From: a virus
Length of the DNA stretch: 26,755 nt
UHGV virus genome: UHGV-0229226
Direction: 5' to 3' (one strand)
A model generated the notes under the pieces. That model worked only from the letters and a program-made list of their open reading frames with translations, did not search any database and was not told the DNA's origin. Shown piece by piece: positions 6,590 through 26,755 of the stretch; position 1 is the first letter of the stretch, and every line of letters starts with the position of its first letter. A program made the translations under genes and the position numbers.

Positions 6590-6597
6590 GAATCCTC

Positions 6598-6903: not shown

Positions 6904-6914
6904 TTGGGCAACCT

Positions 6915-7103: not shown

Positions 7104-7125
7104 GATTCTTTCACCTGTCAGAACA

Positions 7126-7145
7126 GGGGCGCACTTCTGCGCCCC
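7126..7145 (-). terminator. GC-rich hairpin immediately after the major capsid gene
   Basis: GGGGCGCA-GAAG-TGCGCCCC, a perfect 8-bp stem 9 nt after the capsid stop. The U-run after it is weak, so it may stabilise or attenuate the mRNA rather than terminate efficiently. Confidence 0.4.
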
Positions 7146-7153
7146 CTGAATGA

Positions 7154-8359: not shown

Positions 8360-8373
8360 CGTATTTCTCCTGA

Positions 8374-9060
8374 TTAGAAGTTCAGATTTTTCAGTGCATT
8401 CAGTGCAGAGCCCACATCCTCAGCGTCGCGCAGGGACAGTGCGCCATAGCCCCCGGCCATGAATGCTTTGGCCTGGGTACGGGAGAGTCCGACATCACGC
8501 AGGACTCTTTCGATTTTTTTCTGTTCGGGGATTTCCCCGCGGGCCAGTGCGTTCTTGACGTCGCTGATCCGCGCCTCGTCGTTAGACGGGAACGTCACCA
8601 GGCTGACTTCCCAGAGGTCGATTTCTTTCAGCAGAAAGGCTTCTTTGCTCCGGTCGTATTCCCAGTCTTTCAGGACGTACCCAATAGAAAGGCCGGTTAA
8701 CGAACCGGCCTTCATGTGTGCATGTGCGCGTTTTGCGAGGGGATCATCATCAATAAGCAACCGTCCCCTGACGTAAAGCCCGACATCGTCTTCCTTCATT
8801 TCGGTGTAAACACCGATGGGTTCATCCATGCGGTGCTGCCAGAGCAGCGCAGGTAACGCTTTTCTGTCACTCCACGCCCGCAGGGAAGCAGCAAATGCCC
8901 CGGACATCACCACATCATCGTGGCTGTCCTTTACACCAAAGACGGAGCCATACCCTTCAAACTCACCGGAGTCACTGACAGATTTCAGACTCAGCGGTAC
9001 ATCAAGACGTTGTTTCGTCTGCATTGGCGTTATCCTTCTGCTTACCGGCTTTACTGCCAT
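8374..9060 (-). CDS. Prohead protease, HK97 family
   Basis: 228-aa ORF between portal and capsid. Start is uncertain (9060 or the internal Met at 9024) because the ORF overlaps the portal 3' end. Confidence 0.85.
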   Translation of the reverse strand: MAVKPVSRRITPMQTKQRLDVPLSLKSVSDSGEFEGYGSVFGVKDSHDDVVMSGAFAASLRAWSDRKALPALLWQHRMDEPIGVYTEMKEDDVGLYVRGRLLIDDDPLAKRAHAHMKAGSLTGLSIGYVLKDWEYDRSKEAFLLKEIDLWEVSLVTFPSNDEARISDVKNALARGEIPEQKKIERVLRDVGLSRTQAKAFMAGGYGALSLRDAEDVGSALNALKNLNF

Positions 9061-10243: not shown

Positions 10244-10425
10244 TATTTACCTCCGCCGACAGACGACTGTGTACGGTCGAGATATCGCGCCACCAGCCAC
10301 GACCAGAACAGGCACAGCGCCCCGGCAACAACAAAACCCGCCGGGGGATAAATCAGCCAGGCACCATACGCCAGCAAAAGCGCACCCAGCACGCCCACCA
10401 GTGGCGCGAGAATTATCAGAAACAT
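10243..10425 (-). CDS. Hypothetical small membrane protein
   Basis: 60-aa ORF with two hydrophobic segments ([24 protein letters not shown] and [16 protein letters not shown]). Its stop overlaps the portal start. Confidence 0.35.
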
Positions 10426-10436
10426 AATGACCTCGG

Positions 10437-12194: not shown

Positions 12195-12676
12195 CAGTCT
12201 CTCGCTTTTAAAAGCTCTGCCAGCGGATCAACATCATCCGGTCCGGCGGTATTTACTTTCGCCCGGCTTGCCGGTGACATACCAAACTCTGCAAGCATCG
12301 CCCGAATCCGCTTCCAGGCATCAGCCTTCATCGCAGCAGCCGGGTGTGCCTTGATCAGCACATCGCCATTCTGCGTTTCCGTGCGGTAGGTATAACCCTC
12401 AACATCGAGTATTTCGCAGTGATGCCGGTATTCGGTGTAGGCTTCCACCAGTAACTCGAGCGCACGTGCATCGAGCTGAGAAATGATCCCTTCCGCATTC
12501 AGCTCTTCCGCCATTCGCCTGAACCAGTACTTCCCCTGCGCCCCTAAATGTTGCGGAATTTTAGGGAGACCTTTTTCATCCTTTTTAGCGGTTTTTTTGG
12601 AGTCTTTAACTGGCCGCTTAGAGGGGTTACCTCGTATCAAATGCAGGCGTGGCGGGGTTTTCGGGGGTCCAGACAT
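12194..12676 (-). CDS. Terminase small subunit (P27-type)
   Basis: 160-aa ORF with a basic N-terminus, directly upstream of and overlapping the large subunit. Confidence 0.8.
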   Translation of the reverse strand: MSGPPKTPPRLHLIRGNPSKRPVKDSKKTAKKDEKGLPKIPQHLGAQGKYWFRRMAEELNAEGIISQLDARALELLVEAYTEYRHHCEILDVEGYTYRTETQNGDVLIKAHPAAAMKADAWKRIRAMLAEFGMSPASRAKVNTAGPDDVDPLAELLKARD

Positions 12677-12823
12677 AATCGGTTTTACCTATCAATCATT
12701 TAATCACATTCCAAAAAAAAGTTTTCGAACCTGCGGCGATGCGAGGAAAGGTCAGGCGGCGGTACTGAGCAGCCAGGGTTGCAGAGATTTGACCCGCCCC
12801 TCCCCTACAGATGGGAAATGTTA
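12677..12823. other. Probable cos / packaging-initiation region
   Basis: In HK97-like phages cos lies between the HNH gene and the small terminase gene; this 147-bp gap is in exactly that position. The cohesive-end sequence itself is not identifiable by eye. Confidence 0.3.
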
Positions 12824-13174
12824 TCAATTGATGCGTTCGCACGCTGTTTTTGCTTTATGACAGGGCCAGCACAGACTCTGCAGGTTACTGTCTGCATCCG
12901 TGCCACCATGAGCTTTCGGAATGATGTGGTCCACAGTTCTGGCTTCAACGGCTCTCCCATTGCGCAGGCAGTTCTGACACAGATGATTATCACGCTTCAT
13001 TATGCGCGCACGTATGGCATCCCATTTCGAGCCATAGCCACGCTGGTGGCGACTCAGTCCGCGCTGATGCTGTACCCATCCTTCGCCACGATGTTTATCG
13101 CAGTAACCAGAACTGTCTGTGGTTGTACCTGCGCATCCACGCTTACGGCAGGCTCGTGGGATTCGTGATGGCAT
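12824..13174 (-). CDS. HNH endonuclease (terminase-associated)
   Basis: 116-aa ORF with Cys-rich HNH motifs (CQNCLRNGR...VDHIIPKAHGGTDADSNLQSLCWPCH) just upstream of the terminase genes. Confidence 0.85.
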   Translation of the reverse strand: MPSRIPRACRKRGCAGTTTDSSGYCDKHRGEGWVQHQRGLSRHQRGYGSKWDAIRARIMKRDNHLCQNCLRNGRAVEARTVDHIIPKAHGGTDADSNLQSLCWPCHKAKTACERIN

Positions 13175-13181
13175 AAATACC

Positions 13182-13382
13182 TCATACCCTGTTCGGTTTA
13201 ATGACAGGCTGATTCTCGATATGTTCTGCTGTCAGTCTGAAAGTCACAGTGACTGTTGGTGGCTCGCCTCCGCGTGTCTCTGTCCTGGCGGAAAGCTGCC
13301 CTTCCAGTAACTCACCATTAACTGCAATCCCATACCCTGCGAAATGTTTACCACGATACAGTTTAGCGACCTGAAACTTCAT
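13182..13382 (-). CDS. Hypothetical protein
   Basis: 66-aa ORF directly upstream of the HNH gene on the same strand. No family recognised. Confidence 0.4.
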   Translation of the reverse strand: MKFQVAKLYRGKHFAGYGIAVNGELLEGQLSARTETRGGEPPTVTVTFRLTAEHIENQPVIKPNRV

Positions 13383-14290: not shown

Positions 14291-14758
14291 TTATCTGAGA
14301 CATTGCTCACGAATGTATAGCTGTGCCCCTTCCAGTTGCTTCTGCATCGTCATCAACCGTTCTCTGAGGGTGAAATAATCCCGTTCAGCGGTGTCTGCCA
14401 GTCGGGGGCTGGTTGCATTATCCACGCTGGTGGGTCCGGTGGCTTCACGCACGGCTGCGGAGCAACTGGCATTGACCCGCAGGCGCTTACGACCAGCGGC
14501 AACATCAGCGCGCAGGGTTTCATTTTCAGCTTTCGCATTGGCTAATTCTCTCGAGTACTTTGCATCGAGCGCAGCAACATCACGCTGACGCATCTGTATG
14601 TCAGTAATTGCCGCGTTCGCCAGCGTCAGTTCTCTGGCATTTTTGTCGCGCTGGGCTTTGTAGGTAATGGCGTTATCACGGTAATGATTAACAGCCCATG
14701 ACAGGCAGACGATGATGCAGATAACCAGAGCGGAGATAATCGCGGTTACTCTGTTCAT
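14291..14758 (-). CDS. Rz: Rz i-spanin
   Basis: N-terminal transmembrane segment ([18 protein letters not shown]) followed by a charged coiled-coil periplasmic domain. Start taken as MNRV at 14758, overlapping the endolysin stop. Confidence 0.8.
14353..14538 (-). CDS. Rz1: Rz1 o-spanin (outer-membrane lipoprotein) embedded in Rz in another frame
   Basis: 61-aa ORF with a lipobox-type signal (LPLVVSAC) and a proline-rich mature part, lying wholly inside Rz. Confidence 0.75.
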
Positions 14759-15252
14759 TGCTGACCCCACAAACAGATTTCACGCTCAATCTCACGACGA
14801 GTCATGAGACCTTTCCATTGCTTACCGCCAGCATATGTCCAGCGACGTAGCTGATCACATGCGCCTTTGATATCGCCCTGGTTTATTTTGCGAAGAAGCG
14901 TCGATGTTCTGAAATTGCCAGCACCCACGTTGTAAACGAATGAGTAAAGAGCGCCGCGCATTGTTTCCGGTATATCGACTTTGATGTACGGGTTAATTTG
15001 TCTGGCGACCGTGGCAAGGTCTTTATTCAGGAGGGCTTTGCATTCTGCTTTGGTATACGTTTTACCGAGCATGATGTCTTTTCCTGTATGCCCGTGACAT
15101 ACAGTCCATACACCAACAATATCTTTGTATGGTATGTAGCTGACACCTTCCAGACCATCGTTACCACTTGGGCCAGTGATTAACACTGATGCTATAGCAA
15201 TTGCTCCGCCACCAATAGCAGCAGCAACGGCTTTTCGTAATGATGGAGGCAT
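14755..15252 (-). CDS. R: SAR endolysin (phage 21 R-type lysozyme)
   Basis: 165 aa with a Gly/Ala-rich signal-anchor-release segment at the N-terminus ([20 protein letters not shown]) and a T4-lysozyme-like catalytic region (LEGVSY...KD...T). Very close to phage 21 R as I recall it. Confidence 0.9.
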
Positions 15253-15467
15253 TATTCACCTCTCGCAGCCTTGCGCTTATCTTCTTTAATCTTGAAATAA
15301 AGGTTTGTCAGGTACGTCAGCAGGCCAAATACCAGGCTACCCAGCACACCTATTGCCGCCCACTGTGAGGGCGTGACTTTATCGAGCAACTGTAAAAACC
15401 AGTACCCGGCACTACCTGCTGAGGTACCATAGGCGACACCCGTTGTTAACTTATCCATGGATTTCAT
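15252..15467 (-). CDS. S: Class II holin (pinholin, S21-type) with dual-start motif
   Basis: 71 aa, [26 protein letters not shown]..., two transmembrane domains, Met1 and Met4 dual start, charged C-terminus. Matches phage 21 S. Confidence 0.85.
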
Positions 15468-15593
15468 AACCCCACCTCGCAGACAAAGCGGGTGTAAATT
15501 AAGGGGATACTACGTATCGCAATAAAGGCAGAAACGTAACAGATTCGGAGTCAGTGAATAACTCAGGTATTGGGTTATCAGCTAATATCGAGA

Positions 15594-15629
15594 CTCAAAA
15601 AATGGAAAAACCCGCTCGACGGCGGGTTT
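15594..15629 (-). terminator. Rho-independent terminator about 140 nt upstream of the holin
   Basis: CCCGC-CGTCGA-GCGGG hairpin followed on the minus strand by TTTTTCCATTTTTT. A candidate tR'-type late terminator, or a terminator shielding the late operon from upstream transcription. Confidence 0.45.
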
Positions 15630-16055
15630 AAGCTGTGTGACGAAGTAACCACTCTTAACAGCATAACCAATTTTTTACGTACGTAAACTACTAAATGATA
15701 TTTGTGAGAATGCCACCGAGTGTTCAAAACACCACCACAAATGCATAAGAAAACTTCAACAAATAACCAGTTAATAATTTCCGATGTTATTTTTAGTTTG
15801 TTTAAATTAAGCTAAAGAATTATAGAGCACTTATAAATAAGTGCCATTAATATAAATTAGCTAATAGATTTATTTTTGTTCAGACAAGAGCCATGAATAG
15901 GATTAGATAGAAAAGGTTCAGATAAAAATAGAGATCTACTTCACAAATTAAATGAGAAACTAAAACTTACATCTTGAAATAATCACATTGATTAGATGAA
16001 TATTTATCGCGCAGTGACATCATTTTTTAATAATAGTTCAAAAAAAGGGCGTACA

Positions 16056-17138
16056 ATGAAAAAATTAACAGTGGCAATTTCTGCTGTAGCTGCATCAGTA
16101 CTGATGGCGATGTCTGCTCAGGCAGCTGAAATTTATAATAAAGACAGTAACAAGCTGGATCTATACGGGAAAGTTAATGCCAAGCACTACTTCTCCTCTA
16201 ATGATGCAGATGATGGTGATACTACTTATGCCCGTCTTGGCTTCAAAGGTGAAACCCAAATCAACGATCAACTGACTGGTTTCGGTCAGTGGGAATATGA
16301 ATTCAAAGGCAACCGTGCTGAATCTCAAGGTTCTTCCAAAGACAAAACCCGTCTTGCATTTGCAGGCCTGAAATTTGGTGATTACGGCTCAATCGATTAC
16401 GGCCGTAACTACGGTGTAGCATACGACATCGGTGCGTGGACTGACGTTCTGCCAGAATTCGGTGGTGATACCTGGACCCAAACAGATGTGTTCATGACTG
16501 GTCGCACTACTGGTGTTGCAACTTATCGTAACAACGACTTCTTTGGTCTGGTCGATGGCCTGAACTTTGCTGCTCAGTATCAGGGTAAAAATGACCGCAC
16601 TGACGTAACTGAAGCCAATGGTGATGGTTTCGGTTTCTCCACTACTTATGAGTATGAAGGATTCGGCGTGGGTGCAACCTATGCTAAATCAGATCGCACT
16701 GACGGTCAGGTCGCCTATGGTAAGAGCAAATTCAATGCCTCCGGCAAAAATGCGGAAGTATGGGCTGCAGGCCTGAAATATGATGCGAACAATATCTATC
16801 TGGCTACCACATATTCTGAAACTCAGAATATGACCGTTTTTGGTAATAACCATATTGCAAACAAAGCACAAAACTTTGAAGCAGTAGCACAATATCAGTT
16901 TGACTTCGGTCTGCGTCCATCTGTTGCTTACCTTCAGTCAAAAGGTAAAGACCTTGGTGTTCATGGTGACCGAGACTTAGTCAAGTATGTCGATGTCGGT
17001 GCTACTTACTACTTTAATAAAAACATGTCCACTTTTGTTGATTACAAAATCAACTTAATTGACGATAGTAAGTTTACCAAAACAGCTGGTATTGATACCG
17101 ACGACATCGTCGCTGTAGGTCTGGTTTATCAGTTCTAA
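16056..17138 (+). CDS. nmpC: Outer-membrane general porin (OmpC/OmpF family; phage-borne NmpC/Lc-like)
   Basis: Signal peptide [23 protein letters not shown] then [23 protein letters not shown]..., ending in the aromatic ...VAVGLVYQF typical of porins. Start taken at the internal ATG 16056, which has a AAGGG Shine-Dalgarno. Confidence 0.9.
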
Positions 17139-17148
17139 TCTGACTTAC

Positions 17149-17189
17149 GAAAAAGATATGTTGCGGGAGGCTTTGCCTCCGCAACATAT
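17149..17189 (-). terminator. Long inverted-repeat hairpin with U-run on the minus strand (candidate tR'-type terminator)
   Basis: ATATGTTGCGG(G)AGGC ... GCCTCCGCAACATAT, a ~15-bp stem, followed on the minus strand by CTTTTTCG. Lies about 140 nt downstream of Q. Confidence 0.5.
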
Positions 17190-17275
17190 AAGTGGAGCCC
17201 TCAAGCCACTTCCTTTAGAAGCACTACCTTGCTTCTTACTATATAAACCTTCTGTTATATATTACCCTTTATTTT

Positions 17276-17300
17276 GGGGGCGTTTCCACGCCCCATTTTT
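17276..17300 (+). terminator. Plus-strand rho-independent terminator downstream of the porin gene
   Basis: GGGGCGT-TTCC-ACGCCCC followed by ATTTTT on the plus strand. Confidence 0.45.
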
Positions 17301-17326
17301 AATAACTTTTAGTAAACAATTGCATA

Positions 17327-17710
17327 TCAATTAGAATTATTAGCAACGATATCCATATCTAACCGGATATCTAATGCCATTAACATCCCTTCAATTATGC
17401 CCTCAGCCTTCTGTAACCTTTTCCCGATATAACCATCCGAGCAGCAATGCTTACTTGCCAGTGACATGAATGTCATACCACATACATAATAATCTACTAA
17501 TAAATCGTGTAAATCGCTGTTGTTCTTTTTCAGACGGGCCATGCACCCGCAAATGATCATCGCGTCATCGTCACAACATTGCGGGCGAGATTTTACTTTT
17601 GAAGGAATTAATCCCTTAAAACCGGCGGCAATGGACGACCAGGTCACATCTTCATGATTATTAGCCGCCCACGCACCCCAACGCTCAAGAACCATCTGAA
17701 TATCACGCAT
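17327..17710 (-). CDS. Q: Late-gene antiterminator Q (DLP12 QuuD-like)
   Basis: [26 protein letters not shown]...[16 protein letters not shown]... matches my memory of the DLP12 Q-like antiterminator. ATG at 17710 has a GGAG Shine-Dalgarno; the ORF-track start at 17725 is a TTG. Confidence 0.85.
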
Positions 17711-17795
17711 CAACTTACTCCACAAAAATCAGACCAGAACGCCAATTACAAGCAAAAATCAACAAAACAGTATTAGTTGATTGTTATCTCTGACT

Positions 17796-17918
17796 TCATA
17801 CTCCTGTTCCTGTCAGGGTTTTGGCGTAATTCTTCAGTATTCGGTAATCGGTCAAAACAGAACCGAGGAAACGATATAAGCGCAGACGCCCCCAGCGGTG
17901 GCGAAGAAGTTCTGCCAT
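17796..17918 (-). CDS. Small ORF (40 aa) between rusA and Q, ylcG-like
   Basis: ATG at 17918, MAELLRHRWGRLRLYRFLGSVLTDYRILKNYAKTLTGTGV. Below the ORF-track size cut-off. Same position as ylcG in DLP12. Weak Shine-Dalgarno. Confidence 0.35.
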   Translation of the reverse strand: MAELLRHRWGRLRLYRFLGSVLTDYRILKNYAKTLTGTGV

Positions 17919-17932
17919 ATTAAACTCAAACA

Positions 17933-18295
17933 TCATTCATTCCCCATTTCGGTGATGGTCAGTTCCAGCCTCCCACCTTTGGTAACAGGCATCTTCACAA
18001 CGCGGTAATCAACGACCTGAGCATCATCCAGCCAGAAACCTGCTTTAGTGAGTGCGTCAAAAGCGGCTTTTTGCAGATTATCCAGGTCACGGCGACGGCG
18101 ATCCGGCATGTGGCACTCAATGCGGATTTTCACAGGCATAGCCAGGCCGATATCCAGCATTGCGTTTTTAATGATTCGGGCGACGTTATCGCGGTATGCC
18201 TGCCCCTCTGCGCTGACGTGCGTGCGCCCGCGATTATGGCGGTAATAGCGATTATTGCTCGGAGGCCAGGGTAATGTGATGCTGTAGGTATTCAC
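17933..18295 (-). CDS. rusA: Holliday junction resolvase RusA
   Basis: 120 aa; the motifs [13 protein letters not shown] and ...[28 protein letters not shown] are typical of RusA. GTG start overlaps the stop of the upstream remnant (GTGA). Confidence 0.9.
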
Positions 18296-18420
18296 GCCTT
18301 AATAACCCCCTCTTTCAGCCACATAACCTGTGTTCTCGCCATACCTTCCAGCGCGCATTCTTTTGCATATGCAGCATCGACTTGCTTGGCATGCCCTTTA
18401 CCGGCAATCTTCTGTATGCG
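18292..18420 (-). pseudogene. 3' remnant of a ybcO-like (DUF1364-type) gene
   Basis: In the frame coupled to the rusA start, 42 codons read [42 protein letters not shown], resembling the C-terminus of prophage YbcO as I recall it. Two in-frame stops (TAG at 18421-18423 and 18427-18429) and no start codon precede it. Confidence 0.4.
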
Positions 18421-18501
18421 CTAAACCTAGATAGAATCCACTCTGTGCACATTGAAGCCCGCTCTATGCTTTCTTTCAGGTATTGAAGGGATTGAGATGG
18501 G

Positions 18502-18849
18502 CTAAGCATTATTGGCCTCCTGCATCAGGAGAAAGACAATCATGGCGGCGCGGAGAGGTCTGGTATCAAATATTGGGCTTACGCCTTTTGCATCCACACA
18601 CCATTCAGTTAACTGGTCTAAGATAGAAATCCTGTATTTCTCAATAATCGGCCATGAAGCGCTCGGATCATTGCAGTAGTCAGGCAAATGATTTAATGGC
18701 TCAAAAGTTGTATCAGCATTTCCGTAATACCATTTGTTGGTGTTATTCCCTGATGTTTCCGGTTTACTTGCCCAAAGGCCTTTAAAAATTATGTCTCCTA
18801 CCATTCTGTTAATTTCAAAATCACTTAACTGTGAATAATCCATTGTCAT
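18502..18849 (-). CDS. Hypothetical nin-region protein
   Basis: ORF 18502..18885; the likely start MTMDYSQL at 18849 overlaps the ninE stop (ATGA). No confident family assignment. Confidence 0.5.
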
Positions 18850-19022
18850 TTCCTCGCACGATATCTTAGCCACCGGATATCCCACAGGTGGGCTGTGTAA
18901 TTGAAGGTTTTTACGTCAGATTCTTTTGGGATTAGCTTGCGTTTATTTCTGGAGCGTTTCGTTGGAAGGTATTTGCAGTTTTCGCAGATTATGTCGGTGA
19001 TGCTTCGTCGCTGTCGTCTCAT
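18846..19022 (-). CDS. ninE: NinE-family protein
   Basis: 58 aa from the ATG at 19022 (overlapping the methylase stop): [58 protein letters not shown], matching what I recall of lambda NinE. Confidence 0.6.
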
Positions 19023-19546
19023 GCAGCCCTCCTGACGCCCTGCCCGATCGCCATCAATGCCGCTTTGGATACGGTAGTAAACATCCGTCGAGGACTGATG
19101 AACGGTCGCCAAATCAGCAGCATGGAGCCTTTGCTGTTTCCCTTCTTCTCCAGCCCTGTCGATGGTTCGATAAAATTAATCCGTCCATCAGTGATAATAC
19201 GAACTTCGTCAACACTCTCCAGAGCCTTGCTGAACCATCCGACAGACATATCCTCTGGCACAAGCATCACTACCGTCTGTCGCTGTTGTATACACTGCTC
19301 AGCGGCTTTTTCCACCCACGGCCTGATATTGCTGTACGGTGGGTTATTCCAGATTGCACCGTGGCTTACCCACTCAGAATTGAGCGCGTCGTCGTCCTCA
19401 GTTAGCCAGTGAGCGCACAGAGCATTTTTGTCGCTCGCTGCCGAATCCAGCCAGAATCCAAACTCAATATCCAGTGCATCAAAAAGCCAAAGCGGCGTTT
19501 GCCAGCAGTCCTTGTCGTGTGCTGGCGTATTTGATTTGATAGTCAT
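19019..19546 (-). CDS. Phage DNA N6-adenine methyltransferase (Dam-like)
   Basis: From the ATG at 19546 (ATGA overlap with the ninB stop): [26 protein letters not shown]...WNNPPYS..., with the NPPY catalytic motif of N6-adenine methyltransferases. Confidence 0.8.
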
Positions 19547-19983
19547 GCAGCCCGATCTCCCCATCGCGCTTTCCATTCGAGAGCCAGTCGCGCTTCGTCT
19601 GACCACTTAACGCCACGCTCTGTACCGAATGCCTGTATAAGCTCTAATAGCTCCGCAAATTCGCTTACACGCATCCTGCTGGTTGACTGGCCTATTACCA
19701 CAAAGCCATTCCCGGCAAGGTTAGGAACAACATCCTGCTGCTTTAATGCTGCGGTAAACACACACTTCCAGCTTTCTGCATCCAGCCAGCGACCATGCCA
19801 TTCAACCTGACGAGAGACGTCACCTAAGCAGGCCCATAGCTTCCTGTTTTGGTCTAAGCTGCGGTTGCGTTCCTGAATGGTTACTACGATTGGTTTGGTT
19901 GGGTCTGGAAGGATTTGCTGTACTGCGTGAATAGCGTTTTGCTGATGTGCCGGAGATCGAATTTCAAAGGTTAGTTTTTTCAT
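19543..19983 (-). CDS. ninB: Recombination protein NinB
   Basis: MKKLTFEIRSPAHQQNAIHAVQQILPDPTKPIVVTIQERNRSLDQNRKLWACLGDV... is essentially lambda NinB. ATG at 19983 has a GGGGAG Shine-Dalgarno. Confidence 0.85.
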   Translation of the reverse strand: MKKLTFEIRSPAHQQNAIHAVQQILPDPTKPIVVTIQERNRSLDQNRKLWACLGDVSRQVEWHGRWLDAESWKCVFTAALKQQDVVPNLAGNGFVVIGQSTSRMRVSEFAELLELIQAFGTERGVKWSDEARLALEWKARWGDRAA

Positions 19984-19999
19984 GACTTCCCTCTCCCCC

Positions 20000-20031
20000 A
20001 AATAAAAAGGCCTGCGATTACCTGCAGGCCT
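20000..20031 (-). terminator. Rho-independent terminator between ren and ninB (tR2-like)
   Basis: AGGCCTGC ... GCAGGCCT 8-bp stem followed on the minus strand by TTTTTATTT. This is the position of lambda tR2. Confidence 0.55.
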
Positions 20032-20056
20032 GTTATTAGCTCAGTGATGTAGATGG

Positions 20057-20347
20057 TCATCTTTTAACTCCATATACCGCCAATATCCGTTTCATCGTGG
20101 CACTCTGGCGACACTCCTTAAAAATCAGGTTCGTGCTCATCTTTCCTTCCCGTTCTTCCTTGGTAGCAAACCGGTAATACACCGTTCGCCAGACCTTACC
20201 TTCGATAACCAGAAGACCTGCCCGTGCCATTTTAGCCGCGGCCTGATTTATGCTGGTTACTGTTGCGCCTGTTAGCGCGGCAACGTCCGGCGCACAGAAG
20301 CTATTATGCGTCCCCAGGTAATGAATAATTGCCTCTTTGCCCGTCAT
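20057..20347 (-). CDS. ren: Ren protein
   Basis: 96 aa, MTGKEAIIHYLGTHNSFCAPDVAALTGATVTSINQAAAKMARAG..., near-identical to lambda Ren as I recall it. Confidence 0.85.
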   Translation of the reverse strand: MTGKEAIIHYLGTHNSFCAPDVAALTGATVTSINQAAAKMARAGLLVIEGKVWRTVYYRFATKEEREGKMSTNLIFKECRQSATMKRILAVYGVKR

Positions 20348-21045
20348 ACACTTGCTCCTTTCAGTCCTAACTTAGCTTTAATTTCTGCGATCTTCGCCAG
20401 CGCCTGAACACGATTTAGAGGTCTGCCGCCCATGACAGGAAGTTGTTTTACTGGTTCAGGTATCGTCTCACCACGGTTAATTCGCGCTGTCATACAGGTC
20501 AGTTCATCGGCAGCCTTGCGTCGTAATTCCGCGTCAGTCAGCGCATTGGCCCGCATGTTCTGGTACAGGTTGGTAACCAGCCAGTAGTGCGCGTTCGATT
20601 TCCACGGATAAGACTCTGCATCCGGATACAGGCCTCGCTTCCGGCAATACTCGTAAACCATATCAACCAGCTCGCTGAGGTTTGGCAGTCCGGCGATAAC
20701 GGATGCTTCTTCCCGGCACCATGCAACAAACTGCCCGGGTGATGGCAGAAATGGTCGATTCTGCCGACGGGCTACGCGCATTCCTGCGTTAACCTGTTCC
20801 ATTGTGGTGATCCCGTTTTCCCGGAAAGCCAGAACCCACTGGCGGCGGATTTCGTTCAGTTCGTTCTGGTCACGGTTAGCCAGACTCGCCGGGAAAGTTG
20901 CCAGTAACTGGCTGAACACACCGTTGATGATCTGCGCTACCTGCTGTACCTGCGGCTTTTCGTCGTACTGTTCCGGCATGTTGTTGGCGATCCGACGCAT
21001 CTGCTCACGGTCAAAATTAACCATCTGTGCGGCGATGTTTTTCAT
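20344..21045 (-). CDS. P: Replication protein P (DnaB helicase loader)
   Basis: 233 aa, MKNIAAQMVNFDREQMRRIANNMPEQYDEKPQVQQVAQIING..., near-identical to lambda P. Confidence 0.95.
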   Translation of the reverse strand: MKNIAAQMVNFDREQMRRIANNMPEQYDEKPQVQQVAQIINGVFSQLLATFPASLANRDQNELNEIRRQWVLAFRENGITTMEQVNAGMRVARRQNRPFLPSPGQFVAWCREEASVIAGLPNLSELVDMVYEYCRKRGLYPDAESYPWKSNAHYWLVTNLYQNMRANALTDAELRRKAADELTCMTARINRGETIPEPVKQLPVMGGRPLNRVQALAKIAEIKAKLGLKGASV

Positions 21046-21941
21046 AAATCCACCCCGTAAATCCAGTCAGTGTTTGTCAGGTCGAGTTTTGGTTTGCAGG
21101 CTGTCACACCTGCCTGTTGCTTGTTACGGTTGATTTCGAGCTGGGTCCACTTGTCGCGGAGTTTGGCCGGGCTCAGCACGTTACCGGACCAGAAGTTGTC
21201 CTGGCATGCCCAGCGGAACAGTACACACATGTCGCGATGGTTACGTCCGTCACGTTCACGCATCAGGCGGATATCGTTAGCCCACCCTGCAAAATTCGGT
21301 TTTCTGGCTGATGGCGCGATGGTCTTCACCATGTCAAACATCCATTCTGCGGCGGTCAGGTCTTCTGCTGTCCCCCACTTGCTGCCGCTCTGAATTGCAG
21401 CATCCGGTTTCACCACAGAAAGGTCGTTTTCTGGCTGGTCAGAGGATTCGCCAGAATTCTCTGACGAATAATCTTTTCTTTTTTCTTTTGTAATAGTGTC
21501 TTTTGTGTCCCCCTGTTTTGAGGGATAGCAATCCCCCAATTTGAGGGATGTTTTATCCCTCGTTTTAGGGGATTTTCCCTCGTTTTGAGGGATACACCAT
21601 TCTGAGATGTTTTTATTTGGTCCAAACATGCCGCCTTGCTGCTTGATAATATTCATTCTGACGAGTTCTAACTTGGCTTCATTGCACCGTTTGACGGGTA
21701 ACTTTGTAATCTCGCTAAGTTGAGAATCGGTGATTCTGTCCATTGGTTTATTCCATCCATAGGTTTTACGCAGAATGGCAAGCAGCACTTTAAACTGTCG
21801 CTTGGTCAGATCTGCGCCTGAATAAGCCTCAAGCAGCATATTTGATAGTCTGGCGTAACCATCATCGAGATCTGCCACATTACGCTCCTGTTTGGCAAAG
21901 TTACCTCTGCAGAAGTTGAGTATTTTTGCTGTATTTGTCAT
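21042..21941 (-). CDS. O: Replication initiator protein O
   Basis: 299 aa, MTNTAKILNF...GADLTKRQFKVLLAILRKTYGWNKPMDRITDSQLSEITKLPVKRCNEAKLELVRMNII..., near-identical to lambda O. Contains the ori iterons. Confidence 0.95.
   Translation of the reverse strand: MTNTAKILNFCRGNFAKQERNVADLDDGYARLSNMLLEAYSGADLTKRQFKVLLAILRKTYGWNKPMDRITDSQLSEITKLPVKRCNEAKLELVRMNIIKQQGGMFGPNKNISEWCIPQNEGKSPKTRDKTSLKLGDCYPSKQGDTKDTITKEKRKDYSSENSGESSDQPENDLSVVKPDAAIQSGSKWGTAEDLTAAEWMFDMVKTIAPSARKPNFAGWANDIRLMRERDGRNHRDMCVLFRWACQDNFWSGNVLSPAKLRDKWTQLEINRNKQQAGVTACKPKLDLTNTDWIYGVDL
21450..21595. repeat. Replication origin (ori-lambda type): four ~19-bp iterons plus adjacent AT-rich region, inside the O gene
   Basis: Four iterons of the lambda ori consensus type at about 21508-21526, 21531-21549, 21555-21573 and 21576-21594 (tccccctgttttgagggat, atcccccaatttgagggat, atccctcgttttaggggat, tccctcgttttgagggata). 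The AT-rich tract at 21450-21505 lies downstream in the O reading direction. Confidence 0.85.
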
Positions 21942-21973
21942 AATGACTCCTGTGGATTGATCCAGTAATGACC

Positions 21974-22270
21974 TCAGAATTCCATCTGGATTTGTTCAGA
22001 ACGCTCGGTTGCCGCCGGGCGTTTTTTATTGGTGAGTCCATCAAGCGCATACTTAAAAGCCCTGCTAATCGGACTGATGTCTGATGCCATTCCGAAAGCA
22101 CACAAGACCGAAGCAATAAATCTCCAGTCCGTTCTGCTTATCTTCGATTCATGACAGCCAATCATCTTTGCCAGACCGCGCTGGGTAATAGCTGACAGAT
22201 TGATAAGTAAATCTGTTTCTGCGCGATCAACGTCACGCTGTGATAGTTTGCTGTAACTTGTTCTTTCCAT
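21974..22270 (-). CDS. cII: Transcriptional activator CII
   Basis: 98 aa in the cro-cII-O order. The C-terminus ...TNKKRPAATERSEQIQMEF matches the lambda CII C-terminus; the N-terminal half diverges. Confidence 0.8.
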   Translation of the reverse strand: MERTSYSKLSQRDVDRAETDLLINLSAITQRGLAKMIGCHESKISRTDWRFIASVLCAFGMASDISPISRAFKYALDGLTNKKRPAATERSEQIQMEF

Positions 22271-22355
22271 TTCTTAAGATTTCCAATAGTGAATAGTTAG
22301 TTGAAAGGTATGCGTGGAAACGCATATGGCCTTAGTTGGTCAGATATCTTGGAAC

Positions 22356-22401
22356 TCGCTTTTCAGCGACGTAGGACGAATGTCCGTTGTTACAAAGAGC
22401 G
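22356..22401 (-). promoter_or_regulatory. nutR: boxA-like CGCTCTTTG plus boxB hairpin TCGCT-GAAA-AGCGA
   Basis: On the minus strand just after the cro stop: CGCTCTTTGTAA (plus 22390-22401), then about 20 nt on the hairpin TCGCTGAAAAGCGA (plus 22356-22369). Spacing and boxB loop match the nutL candidate at 25036-25081. Confidence 0.5.
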
Positions 22402-22411
22402 GATCCGCTTA

Positions 22412-22627
22412 TTAAGCGGCTTTGTGTTCCGGCGGGAACACGTCATCAAGACTGACTTTTGCGCCTAACTTGTTTAGGCACGCAACAAGAGCACGGCATG
22501 TTTTAAGGTCTGGGAAGCGACGACCAGATTCCCAATGTCCGATAGCTCCCTGTGTGCATCCAACTGCCTTAGCAAGTGTTGTTTGAGAGATATTCAGTGA
22601 CTCTCGATATTTTCGTAGGTTGCTCAT
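22412..22627 (-). CDS. cro: Cro repressor (HTH)
   Basis: 71 aa from the ATG at 22627, which has a GGAGG Shine-Dalgarno: MSNLRKYRESLNISQTTLAKAVGCTQGAIGHWESGRRFPD..., a helix-turn-helix. Divergent from cI. The longer ORF-track ORF would run across the operator region. Confidence 0.8.
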   Translation of the reverse strand: MSNLRKYRESLNISQTTLAKAVGCTQGAIGHWESGRRFPDLKTCRALVACLNKLGAKVSLDDVFPPEHKAA

Positions 22628-22744
22628 ATGCCCTCCATAGTAAACACGAATAAAAAAATACAATATGTACTTTGCGAATACAAGTAAAAATACACATTGT
22701 GCATGGATGGTTCCAGTACAGAGCGTAATAATAAGGACATGAAA
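22628..22744. promoter_or_regulatory. Immunity-region control region (OR operators with PR and PRM), inferred
   Basis: 117-bp AT-rich gap between divergent cro and cI. It contains the palindrome CACATTGTG and AGTAC-type half-sites like those near PL. Exact operators and promoters are not resolved by eye. Confidence 0.45.
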
Positions 22745-23398
22745 ATGAAATGGTATGAACTGGCTAGATCCAGAATGAAAGAGCTCGGCATAACTCAAGA
22801 GAAGTTAGCCGAAGAGCTAGGTATGACGCAGGGTGGGATTGGACACTGGTTGCGCGGATCTCGTCATCCATCTCTTAGTGATATTGGTGTGGTGTTTAAA
22901 TACCTTGGTATTGATAACATATCATTCAACCACGACGGGACATTTTCACCTGTTGGCGAATACTCATCGGCCCCAGTTAAAAAACAATATGAGTACCCTG
23001 TTTTTTCTCATGTTCAGGCTGGGATGTTCTCTCCAGAACTCAGAACCTTTACCAAAGGCGATGCGGAGAGATTGGTAAGCACAACCAAAAAAGCCAGTGA
23101 CTCTGCATTCTGGCTTGAGGTTGAAGGTAACTCAATGACCGCACCAACAGGTTCCAAACCCAGCTTTCCTGACGGGATGTTAATTCTGGTTGACCCTGAG
23201 CAAGCTGTTGAGCCCGGCGATTTCTGCATAGCCAGACTTGGTGGTGATGAATTTACCTTCAAGAAACTGATCAGGGATAGCGGTCAGGTGTTTCTACAGC
23301 CACTAAACCCACAATACCCAATGATCCCATGCAATGAGAGTTGTTCCGTTGTGGGGAAAGTTATCGCCAGCCAATGGCCTGAAGAGACGTTTGGGTGA
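22745..23398 (+). CDS. cI: CI-type prophage repressor (HTH plus S24 LexA-like autopeptidase domain)
   Basis: N-terminal HTH ([23 protein letters not shown]) and C-terminal S24 domain with the catalytic Ser in GNSM and the Lys in FKKL. Start is 22745 (best Shine-Dalgarno spacing) or 22739; the ORF-track start 22697 is a TTG inside the operator region. Confidence 0.85.
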
Positions 23399-23437
23399 TG
23401 AAACCACTTTTATCTACAATTTACAGGGCGGTAAACA

Positions 23438-23995
23438 TTGGCAAAAATAGATGATTATCAGCCAAGCCAAGTAGAAGTTGATAAAGTACTTTATTGTAAA
23501 AAAATAGTTAACTTTTCTGGCGTTAAATGGAAACAGAAACCAAGTCGCTCTGATATGTGGCTACAAGCCCATATCATCCCCTTGGATGAGGATTGTATAC
23601 CTATACAAGGGCTAAAGTTTGAACTGAAATGGAAACCAGATCAGGATTCAGAACCTGATGACCCGATTTCTTACCCTAAAATAAATATTATTGCTTTCTA
23701 TCATAACAAGAGGGTTTTCGCGGTAGATACCTATCACTTTGACAAACACACGAATAGTTACAAGGTCGATCATCCGAAGTACCAAGATATCATTTACGGT
23801 GCTCACTACCATGTATACTATGAAGAAGCTGGATACTATAGTGATAGAATAGCGTTTCCAATCGAAGATGACATAAACCCAGATGACCTGGTAGGGTATT
23901 GGAATTACTTCTGTAAACATCTGAACATAACTTACTCTGGGAGAATACCTTTACCGCTTGAAGATGAGTCGGGGCAAATGGGGTTTGGAATATGA
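23438..23995 (+). CDS. Hypothetical protein, first gene of the cassette in the rexAB position
   Basis: 185-aa ORF 40 nt after cI on the same strand. Soluble, rich in Tyr, Asp and His, with no motif I recognise. Low-GC codon usage. Its stop overlaps the next start (ATGA). Exact start codon is uncertain (see findings). Confidence 0.6.
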   Translation: MAKIDDYQPSQVEVDKVLYCKKIVNFSGVKWKQKPSRSDMWLQAHIIPLDEDCIPIQGLKFELKWKPDQDSEPDDPISYPKINIIAFYHNKRVFAVDTYHFDKHTNSYKVDHPKYQDIIYGAHYHVYYEEAGYYSDRIAFPIEDDINPDDLVGYWNYFCKHLNITYSGRIPLPLEDESGQMGFGI

Positions 23996-24744
23996 TGTGC
24001 TCAACAGTGATCTCACAACTAGGTTTCGAATGCCATCCAATAGGCAAGACCTTGAGAATTATCAGTCCATTCACTTACTGTGATGATGGAGAGCATGTCG
24101 GTGCCTTTATCCGTGAAGTCAATGGTAGGTATTTAGTTAGTGACAGATGCGATGCCTTAATGAATATGGAGGCAAGAGGGATCTCGCTTACCAAAAAACG
24201 ACTTGATGAGATACGACAATTACTGCTTAAAGAAGGCGCAGAACTCAATGCTCGAGGAGAAATCATTGCTTGGGCAACAGAAAAGGATGTCGGTGCGATT
24301 ACATCGAACATAATTAGAGCTGGTATACTCGCATCAACTTTGTCGTTAGACTGGTATCAGCCAGTTCAAGCTGAAAAGTTTGAAAGTATGGTTATTGATT
24401 ATCTATATCACACAGAGCTTAGAGACGCACTTTCTCTTCGTGAAAACGTATATGGCTTGAGTGGACATCAAATTACCGTCCCTGTAACAATAAAAACCGA
24501 CATACCTAAATACGTTTTTACATCAAGCGTGAAACACGGAGGAAGCTGGAATAGTGCTTACTCATTGCTTGGGAAACTAATTGATCTTAAAGCTTCAAGT
24601 GAGGAGTATAACAACAGATTTGTTGTTATAGACAGCGAAGCAATTGGTGATCAAATGCAACAACTCTCCTTACTCTTCCATGAATCAAGCCAAGTTCTAC
24701 CATTCTCCAAAAGAGAGACTTGGGTTAAGAGACTTGCAGCATAA
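23992..24744 (+). CDS. Hypothetical protein, second gene of the cassette in the rexAB position
   Basis: 250-aa ORF translationally coupled to the previous gene and followed by a strong terminator. No recognisable family. Low GC. Confidence 0.65.
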   Translation: MMCSTVISQLGFECHPIGKTLRIISPFTYCDDGEHVGAFIREVNGRYLVSDRCDALMNMEARGISLTKKRLDEIRQLLLKEGAELNARGEIIAWATEKDVGAITSNIIRAGILASTLSLDWYQPVQAEKFESMVIDYLYHTELRDALSLRENVYGLSGHQITVPVTIKTDIPKYVFTSSVKHGGSWNSAYSLLGKLIDLKASSEEYNNRFVVIDSEAIGDQMQQLSLLFHESSQVLPFSKRETWVKRLAA

Positions 24745-24748
24745 TACA

Positions 24749-24775
24749 ACCCGGCCTCAGCGCCGGGTTTTCTTT
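24749..24775 (+). terminator. Rho-independent terminator ending the cI-cassette operon
   Basis: ACCCGGC-CTCAGC-GCCGGGT, a 7-bp GC stem, followed by TTTTCTTT, 5 nt after the stop of the second cassette gene. Confidence 0.6.
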
Positions 24776-24948
24776 GCCTCACGTTCGCCCACCTAAAAAC
24801 ACATAACCAATTATATTTATTGAAAAATAAATAGATGCAACCCACTAAACCACGCAATTCTGATCTCTCCTTACATCGCCGAGGCAATACATCCACGCTA
24901 AAAAACAACACTATTAAATACAAAGCGTTATAAAAAACCACGCCAACT

Positions 24949-24991
24949 TACAACAAATTGTATTGATCTTGTAAAGTACATATCGTACTAT
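24949..24991 (+). promoter_or_regulatory. Candidate OL operators and PL promoter
   Basis: Palindromes TACAACAAATTGTA (24949-24962) and AGTACATATCGTACT (24975-24989) overlap a plausible promoter, TTGATC, 17 bp, TACTAT, pointing toward N. Confidence 0.4.
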
Positions 24992-25035
24992 TTAACCGTC
25001 AGCAGGACGCTGGAAGCCAAATGGAACAGACTGGC

Positions 25036-25081
25036 AGGCTCTTTAAACAACGTCGACTCTCGACTACGTGGCTGAAAAGCC
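25036..25081 (+). promoter_or_regulatory. nutL: boxA-like GGCTCTTTAA plus boxB hairpin TGGCT-GAAA-AGCCA
   Basis: boxA-like sequence at 25036-25045 and the hairpin TGGCTGAAAAGCCA at 25068-25081, about 100 nt upstream of N. Same architecture as the nutR candidate. Confidence 0.5.
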
Positions 25082-25180
25082 AGATCACCCAACCACATAA
25101 GCTGTGGGATGCAATGCCGAAGCAACCGTCTCAGGAGGAGCTTCGAGATTGCATCGCCAAAGTTTATTCGGGAGGAATCC

Positions 25181-25453
25181 ATGTCCAGAAAAACAGAATT
25201 TAAAGGCACCGCAGCTTCTCGCCGTAGAGCTCGTCGCGCAAATCTGCAAAGTCAGGAGGCGATCAGCTCCGACAAGCTACACAGGCCAACCCCTTCACGA
25301 GTGGTCTTGCAATGCAAGCTCAAACCAGCAATGAGAGCAGAAGTGATAACTCTGACAACGTTGACCAGAAAATATGAAGGTTCAACTTGTCTTCCGAACG
25401 TAGCTCTTTACGCGGCAGGCTACCGGAAATCAAAACAACTGACGGCGAGATGA
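25181..25453 (+). CDS. N: Early antiterminator N (arginine-rich motif)
   Basis: 90 aa from the ATG at 25181, which has a GGAGGA Shine-Dalgarno. N-terminal arginine-rich motif GTAASRRRARRANLQ. Sits downstream of PL/nutL, in the lambda position relative to cI. Confidence 0.75.
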   Translation: MSRKTEFKGTAASRRRARRANLQSQEAISSDKLHRPTPSRVVLQCKLKPAMRAEVITLTTLTRKYEGSTCLPNVALYAAGYRKSKQLTAR

Positions 25454-25469
25454 TAAATTCATTTGCTAA

Positions 25470-26051
25470 TTACTTGTTTTTGCCATGCTTATCCTGAGCG
25501 ATAAGTTCATCCATAAGGCTGTCTGCCTTCCCGGCAAACCTAATGTAGCACTCATGTCTATAGCTTTCAGGGATAACGAAACGGTCGGTATCAGGATATC
25601 CAACAGCAGGAGGCCTTCGAACGAGGAGTCCTTTTTTGAGCAATGAAATTGATTCATGAGCGCCCTTTTCCGTTTGTAGCTGGTTATTAGCGGCTACAGC
25701 GAATGCCAAATACGCTCTTTCTCCAAGAGTTAACGAATCAAACAAATCTTGCACATATTTTTCTTCTTTAGATTTGCGCTTCTGAGCAGCGAATACCTCA
25801 ATTCTTTCAGTCACAGCGTGATAAGCGGAATTAACAACGCCGTTAAGCACATAGCTAACGCAAAACAACAGGATGTAATACATCCAGTAATGAGGAAGGA
25901 TTTCTGGACTATGCAGGTTTATCCATTCTTTTACGCTTACCGGCATAACAATAATCAATATGATCAGGATGATTAGCATATGAATCAACTGTTTAAGTGT
26001 CATTCCTTGCAGGAAAAAATGCATTAGTTCCTGCCACCATGAGTTGTTCAT
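25470..26051 (-). CDS. sieB: Superinfection exclusion protein B-like membrane protein
   Basis: 193 aa with an N-terminal hydrophobic segment (LIHMLIILIILIIVMPV), a second hydrophobic segment, and a C-terminal soluble domain. Convergent with N and located between N and ral, exactly as sieB is in lambda. Confidence 0.55.
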   Translation of the reverse strand: MNNSWWQELMHFFLQGMTLKQLIHMLIILIILIIVMPVSVKEWINLHSPEILPHYWMYYILLFCVSYVLNGVVNSAYHAVTERIEVFAAQKRKSKEEKYVQDLFDSLTLGERAYLAFAVAANNQLQTEKGAHESISLLKKGLLVRRPPAVGYPDTDRFVIPESYRHECYIRFAGKADSLMDELIAQDKHGKNK

Positions 26052-26194
26052 CGGCGTTTCTCTTTTGCTCTCTGTAGGGGTGAATAGAGTTTATCCGATT
26101 TCTCGTTGTAGGGGTACACGAGAACCACCGAGCCTGATGTGGTTAAAAGACAGGCACAATCTTTACTACCGCAATCCACTATTTAAGGTGATAT

Positions 26195-26281
26195 ATGGAA
26201 GAAGAATTTGAAGAGTTCGAAGAGCATCCTCAAGATGTGATGGAACAATACCAGGACTATCCGTATGACTACGACTATTGA
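26195..26281 (+). CDS. Small acidic protein (lambda orf28-like)
   Basis: 28 codons, MEEEFEEFEEHPQDVMEQYQDYPYDYDY, with an AAGGTG Shine-Dalgarno; overlaps the ral start. Below the ORF-track cut-off. Confidence 0.5.
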   Translation: MEEEFEEFEEHPQDVMEQYQDYPYDYDY

Positions 26282-26465
26282 TACAAATCAATGGTGTGGA
26301 CAATTCAAACGATGCAATGGATGCAAGCTGCAATCGGAATGCATGGTTAAGCCTGAAGAAATGTTTCCTGTAATGGAAGATGGGAAATATGTCGATAAAT
26401 GGGCAATACGAACGACGGCAATGATTGCCAGAGAACTTGGTAAACAGAACAACAAAGCTGCCTGA
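26265..26465 (+). CDS. ral: Restriction alleviation protein Ral
   Basis: 66 aa, MTTTIDTNQWCGQFKRCNGCKLQSECMVKPEEMFPVMEDGKYVDKWAIRTTAMIARELGKQNNKAA, near-identical to lambda Ral as I recall it. Confidence 0.85.
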   Translation: MTTTIDTNQWCGQFKRCNGCKLQSECMVKPEEMFPVMEDGKYVDKWAIRTTAMIARELGKQNNKAA

Positions 26466-26511
26466 TAGTGGCCTTTATTTTTGGCATAAATAACAGAATA
26501 AACACTGCACT

Positions 26512-26539
26512 GTGTATTCATTCCAACGAGTGAATACAC
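26512..26539 (+). repeat. Perfect 9-bp inverted repeat GTGTATTCA ... TGAATACAC
   Basis: Arms at 26512-26520 and 26531-26539 with a 10-nt spacer, in the gap downstream of ral. Could be an RNA hairpin or a protein-binding palindrome. Confidence 0.5.
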
Positions 26540-26601
26540 GGAGCAATGTCGCTCGTAACTAAACAGGAGCCGACTTGTTCTGATTATTGGAAATCTTCTT
26601 T

Positions 26602-26629
26602 GCCCTCCAGTGTGAGGGCGATTTTTTAT
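26602..26629 (+). terminator. Rho-independent terminator downstream of ral
   Basis: GCCCTC-CAGTGT-GAGGGC hairpin followed by GATTTTTTAT. Confidence 0.5.
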
Positions 26630-26647
26630 CTATGAGGATATGAATAG

Positions 26648-26755
26648 ATGTCAAACATCAAAAAATACATCATTGATTACGACTGGAAAGCATCAATAGA
26701 AATTGAAATTGACCATGACGTAATGACAGAGGAAAAACTTCACCAGATTAATAAT
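26648..26755 (+). CDS. Hypothetical protein, partial (continues beyond the window end)
   Basis: ATG at 26648 preceded by GAGGA; reads MSNIKKYIIDYDWKASIEIEIDHDVMTEEKLHQINN... and is open to the window end. AT-rich. Not lambda cIII. Confidence 0.4.
   Translation, partial: MSNIKKYIIDYDWKASIEIEIDHDVMTEEKLHQINN

Follow-up and report, generated by a model that had tools for sequence, protein, structure and literature searches.

N and its nut sites are textbook components of lambdoid phages, and the binding of N to boxB is the reference model for arginine-rich peptide-RNA recognition and processive antitermination, as well as a common tethering tool. To our knowledge, the boxB elements that have been studied structurally (lambda, P22, and phage 21) all have loops of at least five bases. 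Roles in contacting the peptide or NusA have been assigned to this extra base in lambda and P22. The lambda pentaloop is reported to adopt a GNRA tetraloop fold by extruding one base, the closing U-A pair and the loop G being key contacts (PMC12027372), and the KH domains of NusA contact boxB in the cryo-electron microscopy complex (PMC8632103). In the Stx1 phage H-19B, whose antitermination system was studied in the Friedman and Sen laboratories, nutR is made of two hairpins, a spacer protected by NusA and Rho and a boxB whose loop is protected by N; N and NusA together protect spacer and boxB (PMC3526286). Experiments use this site together with the Rho-dependent terminator tR1 (nutR/tR1), and it supports antitermination by N both in vivo and in vitro (PMC3526286). 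Here, we compare these systems with the N gene and two candidate nut sites of UHGV virus genome UHGV-0229226, analyzed over its whole stretch of 26,755 nucleotides (nt), called the window, to which all positions refer. These sites very probably are the nutL and nutR of a lambdoid N system in which a boxB with a GNRA tetraloop would be paired with a short lambda-like arginine-rich motif.

The composite motif GCTCTTT-N(15-30)-GCTGAAAAGC has exactly two matches in the window, at 25038-25080 (+) and 22358-22400 (-), each on the strand expected for its operon, while 0 were expected and none was found in 100 dinucleotide-preserving shuffles; taken alone, the count of the 10-mer GCTGAAAAGC in the window is not significant. 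This recovers the paired sites proposed in an initial annotation made from the sequence, a GCTCTTT core followed by TGGCT-GAAA-AGCCA or TCGCT-GAAA-AGCGA. That annotation located nutL correctly but ended it at 25081, one base short of 25082, and its boxA-boxB distance of 20-22 nt has to be revised, as boxB starts 24 nt past the GCTCTTT core at both nutL and nutR and both composite matches span 43 nt. Each boxB has a 5-bp stem, a U-A closing pair, and a GAAA tetraloop. A boxA resembling the consensus lies 5′ of each boxB, and the cores GGCUCUUUA (nutL) and CGCUCUUUG (nutR) are of the rrn consensus type UGCUCUUUA, not of the lambda type CGCUCUUA (consensus sequences from PMC2724277); in nutL, the core GCUCUUUA fits the rrn-type boxA. 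The positions are also those of lambdoid antitermination, with one site between pL and N and another between cro and cII/tR1, both on the transcribed strand. The nutL boxA is found ~40 nt into the predicted pL transcript, whose start is placed at ~24998, and ~100 nt 5′ of the N start codon; nutR begins 10 nt past the cro stop codon.

The N protein of the window, of 90 amino acids (aa), matches the Pfam family N_peptide (PF25694, E = 1.5e-32) and PHROG 271 (E = 2.3e-24), and is 98.9% identical to the N of VT2-Sakai (Stx2 phage Sp5 of O157:H7 Sakai). The same 90-aa coding sequence is annotated in PhiR57_1, and this N type already bears the name N in several records; in RefSeq E. coli genomes, the N region carries only the label "hypothetical protein". 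The longer 114-aa open reading frame starting at ATG 25109, as in the VT2-Sakai GenBank record, was rejected for ATG 25181 because of the Shine-Dalgarno sequence GGAGG, the homologues, and the PhiR57_1 annotation. As expected for lambdoid N/nut antitermination, this N-family protein carries an arginine-rich motif. The sequence singled out in the initial annotation as distinct, SRRRARRANLQ, is indeed found at residues 13-23 (SRRRARR at 13-19), and the short motif follows the pattern RRRxxRAxLQ, with no Trp. The C-terminus, CLPNVALYAAGYRKSKQLTAR, is conserved and common to the H-19B and P22 N proteins. A sequence search of the PDB with N gave no match at E <= 10.

The window nutR can be aligned base for base with that of H-19B through the tR1 region, and it is for this homologous H-19B site that N binding and read-through with Nus factors were shown (PMC3526286, PMC4499122). 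Read from its record, the H-19B nutR is CGCUAUUUUCACAAU-GGACAUUCGUCC-UACG-UCGCU-GACAA-AGCGA; the spacer hairpin GGACAUUCGUCC, the UACG linker, the boxB stem UCGCU/AGCGA, and the downstream tR1 region are the same in the window. The sole nutR difference that is consistent with class is a loop C missing in the window, turning GACAA into GAAA. The window boxA is also better: H-19B has a degenerate boxA at nutR (CGCUAUUU) and no obvious one at nutL, whereas boxA is of the consensus type at both window sites. The nutL boxB of H-19B is GCGCU-GACAA-AGCGC, so that both H-19B sites have the 5-nt GACAA loop where the window has GAAA. The two N proteins have the N-terminus M[ST]R[KR]T.FKG..RRR and the last 21 residues (identical) in common, but the H-19B motif RRRERLKAKALANGVLA is 7 residues longer and the protein has 127 aa, versus 90 in the window. 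The H-19B-type combination of a GACAA loop with the long motif RRRERLKAKALANG is absent from the window, and the two-hairpin nut architecture is common to H-19B/933W and the window.

With lambda N, the window motif shares AxxRRRxRRAxxQxQ (A..RRR.RRA..Q.Q), lambda K14 and W18 being L and E in the window protein. In an ungapped comparison of 26-residue motif strings, the window motif has 9 identities with lambda N residues 1-24, and the short motifs as a class have 9-10, whereas those of H-19B or P22 have 6-7. Similarity to the lambda N body was not detected by tblastn, the matches in lambda-named records spanning the last 24 residues only. At the RNA level, the likeness to lambda boxB lies in the 5-bp stem, the U-A closing pair, and the purine-rich G...A loop. 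The lambda record gives loops GAAGA and GAAAA (5 nt) and spacers of 8-9 nt without a hairpin (also PMC2724277); the contrast with lambda drawn in the initial annotation therefore holds, once GAAGA is added to its GAAAA and its spacer of 8 nt is widened. The lambda/P22-type loop of 5 nt with one extruded base is found at neither window site, where the loop is the 4-nt GAAA, as it is 4 nt long in all relatives with a short motif; the window boxB thus corresponds to the GNRA core of the lambda/P22 loops minus the extra base. P22 gp24 is similar in its Pfam family, its C-terminus, its homologous pL leader, and its GCUCUUUAAC-type boxA, and differs in its GACAA pentaloop, its motif NAKTRRHERRRKLAIERD, and its short spacer with no spacer hairpin. 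The epsilon34 protein gp43 belongs to the short motif class (SAAGRRRERRAALQ) and has GAAA tetraloops at both sites, the nutR boxB being annotated in GenBank as the 14-nt TCGCTGAAAAGCGA, but its N body is of the 120-aa H-19B/Oslo type and its nutL has no consensus boxA. In the epsilon34 paper, a new BoxB specificity was inferred from the divergent N-terminal 27 residues, and the passages available to us do not mention loop length (PMC2629481).

Across the loci fetched from IMG/VR and GenBank, in which near-clonal loci inflate the counts, motif class and loop length switch together. The nutR loop is GAAA in 115/115 loci with a short-motif N and GACAA in 45/45 loci with a long-motif N, with none discordant among the 160, and the nutL loops show the identical association. 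The short motifs in these loci are TAASRRRARRANLQ, TSASRRRARRANLQ, TAASRRRAHRAELQ, and SAAGRRRERRAALQ, and the long motif is ..RRRERLKAKALANG... A protein search yielded about a dozen further motif variants; divergent C-termini (L124 and L174) were missed by the pattern used to find N, and both were read by hand. Before the contigs were retrieved, we had written down that short-motif variants should have U-A-closed GNRA tetraloops and that the variant P0027 should have pentaloops, and both predictions held. Indeed, P0010, P0012, P0013, P0017 (from Cronobacter), P0037, and P0042 (105 aa) all have GAAA or GCAA. P0027 (locus L212) is a 97-aa protein combining the body of the 90-aa type with the long motif, and has GACAA at both sites (UGGCC-GACAA-GGCCA and UCGCC-GACAA-GGCGA), with flanks nearly identical to those of the tetraloop locus L208. 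The loop is GACAA with P0053 as well, and GCAA at both sites of L124 (motif TADSRRREARKHLQ). In all, a tetraloop (GAAA or GCAA) accompanies the short motif in 10/10 and a 5-base loop the long or P22 motif in 5/5 of 15 distinct N variants. The controls fit this scheme, with CUAACC-type loops for phage-21-like motifs and GACAA for P22.

Three mosaic pairs have near-identical flanks, namely epsilon34 versus sal5/Oslo, L208 versus L212, and VT2-Sakai versus H-19B, and in each the motif and both boxB loops switch together. For example, epsilon34 and sal5 are nearly identical from the nutL spacer to past the N start, except for boxB and the motif codons; the nutL boxB is CGGCU-GAAA-AGCCG in epsilon34 versus GCUC-CGUCAAC-GAGC in sal5, and the nutR difference lies in the loop. 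The long motif adds exactly 7 residues in both body types (127 versus 120 aa and 97 versus 90 aa). The real and distinct N/nut specificity put forward in the initial annotation is supported by this joint switching in three mosaics and by the co-occurrence of the short motif with the 4-nt GNRA loop. The comparison it called for, of N motifs and nut sites with those of lambda, 21, P22, and relatives, yields motif classes that track loop type in every locus compared. The loop it called unusual is so with respect to lambda, P22, and phage 21 but not otherwise, being the type of VT2-Sakai, of many phages, and of 14% of complete E. coli genomes. A separate observation was made in an E. coli prophage whose N carries the motif DDNARNRRRARRQAQREQ (L221:4369-4476, -): its nutR boxB, CCCGC-CGAAAU-GCGGG, has GAAA between C and U and could represent another tetraloop-like class with a different motif.

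Both hairpins of the nut sites are under selection. All fetched loci together yielded 40 distinct nut sites. On this mixed alignment, the count covered the spacer helix but only the three outer pairs of boxB, because MAFFT placed the tetraloop/pentaloop gap within the 3′ stem; all five boxB pairs were counted on an alignment of the tetraloop class only (31 distinct sites). In the 40-site set, 93.8% of the cells are paired, 7/8 pairs have changes on both sides, and the covariation score is 0.709, compared to 0.134 in shuffles (0/500 reach the observed score) and <=0.108 with slid partners. For the 31 tetraloop-class sites and all ten pairs, 94.2% of the cells are paired and the score is 0.483 versus 0.111. 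In the boxB stem, 99-100% of the cells are paired and 3/5 pairs have double changes, as expected for a helix maintained by selection: the first pair is U-A, C-G, A-U, or G-C, and the second G-C or C-G. The closing U-A becomes C-G in L124, the only such change in the tetraloop class, and in the pentaloop locus L212. The tetraloops are GAAA or GCAA only, which fits GNRA, with GCAA at nutL of POCJ13, at the Cronobacter-type nutR, and at both sites of L124. Some boxB elements keep the loop but have C.C for the closing pair, in both loop-length classes: UCGC-C-GAAA-C-GCGA at nutR of L217 (78-116, -), CCGC-C-GACAA-C-GCGG at L088 (P22 nutR), and GCUC-C-GUCAA-C-GAGC at nutL of Oslo.

The spacer hairpins, which were absent from the initial annotation, lie within the 24-nt stretch between boxA core and boxB at both sites and are flanked by the conserved ACAAC and UACG. 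The long boxA-boxB distance is thus accounted for by a spacer hairpin like the one described earlier for H-19B nutR, and the extended spacer with its hairpin makes both sites similar to those of the H-19B type. Double compensatory changes affect 4/5 stem pairs of the nutL spacer hairpin over the 40 distinct sites, the stems seen being GUCGA/UCGAC, GGUGA/UCACC, GAUUC(A)/(U)GAAUC, and GGAC/GUCC; in 79 close relatives, the loop alone of the nutL spacer varies (CTC, ACAC, ACTC, ATC, GCAC). One spacer hairpin scored as terminator-like on the opposite strand. In an alternative fold, boxA (GCUCUUU) would pair with the boxB loop and 3′ half (AAAAGC) around the spacer hairpin. As a conserved feature, this fold was rejected, both because the flanking pair lacks covariation and because the nutL sites of epsilon34 and H-19B are without the boxA that it requires, and it is probably incidental.

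From these comparisons, we consider it somewhat probable that loop length discriminates between the N/nut systems. Taken together, loop length and motif type would most likely set the specificity that separates the window system from the co-circulating H-19B/933W system. Real nut sites with a functionally neutral loop length, the window N and the H-19B/P22-type N cross-reacting and the 4-nt loop being drift and not a determinant of specificity, are an unlikely explanation. It would agree with the nutR boxB stem, spacer hairpin, and flanks common to both classes, and with the ability of both loop types to present a GNRA-like fold (PMC12027372, summarizing Legault 1998); drift, however, would be expected to leave mixed nutL/nutR states, and not one mixed genome was seen among about 160 loci, while motif and both loops switch jointly in three independent mosaic backgrounds with almost identical intervening sequence. 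We give very little credit to a different N target, be it the spacer hairpin or a boxB made of 4 bp and a 6-nt loop, UGAAAA. The spacer hairpin is conserved in position, but its sequence and loop vary freely within one N type, and the same hairpin occurs identically in phages with different motifs and so does not track N. As for the 6-nt loop, the U-A closing pair is near-invariant, covariation there amounting to one C-G and one C.C case, yet pairing is kept where it changes, to C-G in L124 and L212 and to U.G in Oslo. The H-19B footprints also assign the boxB loop to N and the spacer to NusA and Rho (PMC3526286). A reading of the sites as hairpins arisen by chance or as remnants of terminators, without a function in antitermination, can practically be dismissed: fold energies of the whole region are unexceptional and the opposite strand of one spacer hairpin resembles a terminator, but the composite motif is expected 0 times, each site has the correct strand and position, the stems show compensatory changes, no U-tract follows boxB, and the sites are kept across Escherichia, Shigella, Salmonella, Cronobacter, and Pantoea-type loci.

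Several points weigh against reading the sites as the nut sites of a tetraloop N system whose specificity is set by loop and motif. The lambda N peptide reportedly tolerates a GNRA tetraloop boxB (work of Legault et al. from 1998); if so, loop length alone need not discriminate strictly. The motif is physically linked to the nut sites (within 3 kb) and many of the loci are near-clonal, so that the large counts are not independent and the real support comes from about 15 variants and 3 swaps. Thermodynamic folds of the whole nut region are no better than those of shuffles (z about -1); such whole-site z-scores being uninformative, the comparative analysis was used in their place. For the competing pairing between boxA and the 3′ half of boxB, the predicted energies equal or surpass those of the two-hairpin fold (-14.1 vs -12.0 kcal/mol for nutL and -11.9 vs -11.7 kcal/mol for nutR). 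Moreover, no paper on this N or these sites was found in the searchable literature, which mostly leaves aside subscription papers; within the same scope, none was found on the VT2-Sakai nut sites, a natural tetraloop boxB, a lambda-like motif devoid of Trp, or the joint switching of motif and loop.

For nut sites of a tetraloop N system, we infer by homology that N binds boxB, that this binding is specific, and that it leads to read-through. RNA polymerase starting from pL (rightward) or pR (leftward) would transcribe a nut site, and NusB-NusE would bind the consensus-type boxA (GCUCUUU) in the nascent RNA, in contrast to the degenerate boxA of H-19B. The spacer would fold into the small hairpin that is the place of NusA and Rho action in H-19B, and the N-terminal arginine-rich helix of the 90-aa N would bind the boxB hairpin. 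The C-terminus of N (CLPNVALYAAGYRKSKQLTAR) would then modify RNA polymerase, leading to read-through of tR1, which may be the first barrier for the modified enzyme, and of downstream terminators, the hairpin at 26600-26621 (+) possibly being another N-dependent one. More tentatively, loop length might act as a switch that makes the two N/nut systems orthogonal despite a near-identical nut sequence otherwise; in this still doubtful reading, the short Trp-less motif would accept a bare GNRA tetraloop but no pentaloop, with the opposite preference for the long H-19B motif. If this were true, a full antitermination complex would assemble on a boxB without an extruded base, the proposed contact between that base and NusA would be dispensable in a natural and very common system (Stx2 phage Sp5/VT2-Sakai), and a third orthogonal peptide-RNA tethering pair would be at hand. 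The extruded base is said to have been proposed to serve NusA and not N (Legault in 1998 and Chattopadhyay in 1995); if this is right, the window system works without that contact.

The system is ordinary, follows a textbook mechanism rather than a new one, and is apparently a common but undescribed tetraloop variant of it. A natural GNRA-tetraloop class whose lambda-like motif is without Trp18 provides a direct test of which contacts are essential, with the natural swaps (epsilon34/sal5, L208/L212, and VT2-Sakai/H-19B) as ready constructs. N-dependent read-through controls early genes in Stx phages, and prophage cross-activation hinges on these specificities.

Table 1. Coordinates of the N/nut elements and neighboring features in the window.
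Feature	Position	Strand	Basis or remark
nutL	25038-25082	+	between pL and N
nutL boxA, GCTCTTTAAACAA (= GCUCUUUAAACAA)	25038-25050	+	sequence; conserved in close relatives
nutL spacer hairpin, GUCGA-cuc-UCGAC (DNA GTCGA-ctc-TCGAC)	25052-25064	+	fold, covariation
nutL boxB, TGGCT-GAAA-AGCCA (RNA UGGCU-GAAA-AGCCA)	25069-25082	+	sequence, fold, covariation
nutR	22356-22401	-	between cro and cII
nutR boxA, CGCTCTTTGTAACAA (= CGCUCUUUGUAACAA)	22387-22401	-	aligned with nutR of H-19B, 933W, VT2-Sakai, POCJ13, epsilon34
nutR spacer hairpin, GGAC-auuc-GUCC (DNA GGAC-attc-GTCC)	22374-22385	-	fold; identical to that of H-19B nutR
nutR boxB, TCGCT-GAAA-AGCGA (RNA UCGCU-GAAA-AGCGA)	22356-22369	-	sequence, fold, H-19B alignment
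Alternative fold at nutL	25036-25084	+	energy prediction
Alternative fold at nutR	22354-22402	-	energy prediction
N gene, 90 aa	25181-25453	+	ATG 25181; Shine-Dalgarno GGAGG 25172-25176
Arginine-rich motif codons, residues 9-26 (GTAASRRRARRANLQSQE)	25205-25258	+	short lambda-like class, no Trp
Putative pL promoter (TTGATC, 17 nt, TACTAT) over operator-like palindromes	24963-24991	+	read from sequence
cI	ATG ~22703 or 22745 to 23398	+	
cro	22412-22630	-	HTH_3 E = 4.3e-12; Cro in PhiR57_1; precedes nutR on pR transcript
Putative tR1-like hairpin	22307-22328	-	between nutR and cII; few bases different from H-19B stretch
cII	21974-22270	-	Phage_CII E = 7e-34; downstream of nutR/tR1
Putative intrinsic-terminator-like hairpin and T-run	26600-26621	+	pL operon downstream of N; candidate N read-through target

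The immunity region is in reverse orientation in the window, and since cI and N are on the + strand and cro, cII, O, and P on the - strand, pL would run rightward and pR leftward. The pL promoter fell below the threshold of the consensus promoter scan and is therefore a prediction; its leader, CGTCAGCAGGACGCTGGAAGCCAAA, has a homologue in the 5′ end of the pL transcript annotated in P22. The epsilon34 site corresponding to the tR1-like hairpin is annotated as a putative tR1. Positions 22300-25500 are 100% identical to Escherichia phages ev017, ev207, PhiR57_1, and PhiR63_2, and identity to many Stx-converting phages is ~96.5% over the part with N and the nut sites. The nutL-N segment was found in 763/5,426 complete E. 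coli genomes (14%), including the type strain and Nissle 1917. The identical region in isolated phages and the segment in so many E. coli genomes indicate that the phage is active and common. An Rfam scan of 21900-25700 at E <= 10 returned only noise, the nut sites lying outside any Rfam family.

The window is a mosaic: 14328-26755 (early region, Q, and lysis) is 99.6% identical to PhiR57_1, while the head and tail genes in 1-13191 match, at 97%, their counterparts in phi467 and vB_EcoM-606R7 rather than in PhiR57_1. At the position of the lambda/P22 oop RNA terminator (21998-22025, +), antisense in the 3′ end of cII, lies a strong hairpin that resembles a terminator and has a T-run. Finally, a two-gene cassette lies at the rexAB position between cI and pL (23438-24769, +), with a strong intrinsic terminator behind it (24748-24769). 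Its first gene encodes a DUF6978-like protein of 185 aa (phrog_2017; PADLOC PDC-M24A, E = 4.8e-4) and the second a DUF1828 protein of 250 aa (phrog_1960; PADLOC PDC-M24B, E = 4.7e-10), making the cassette a candidate for a defense or exclusion pair expressed by the prophage.

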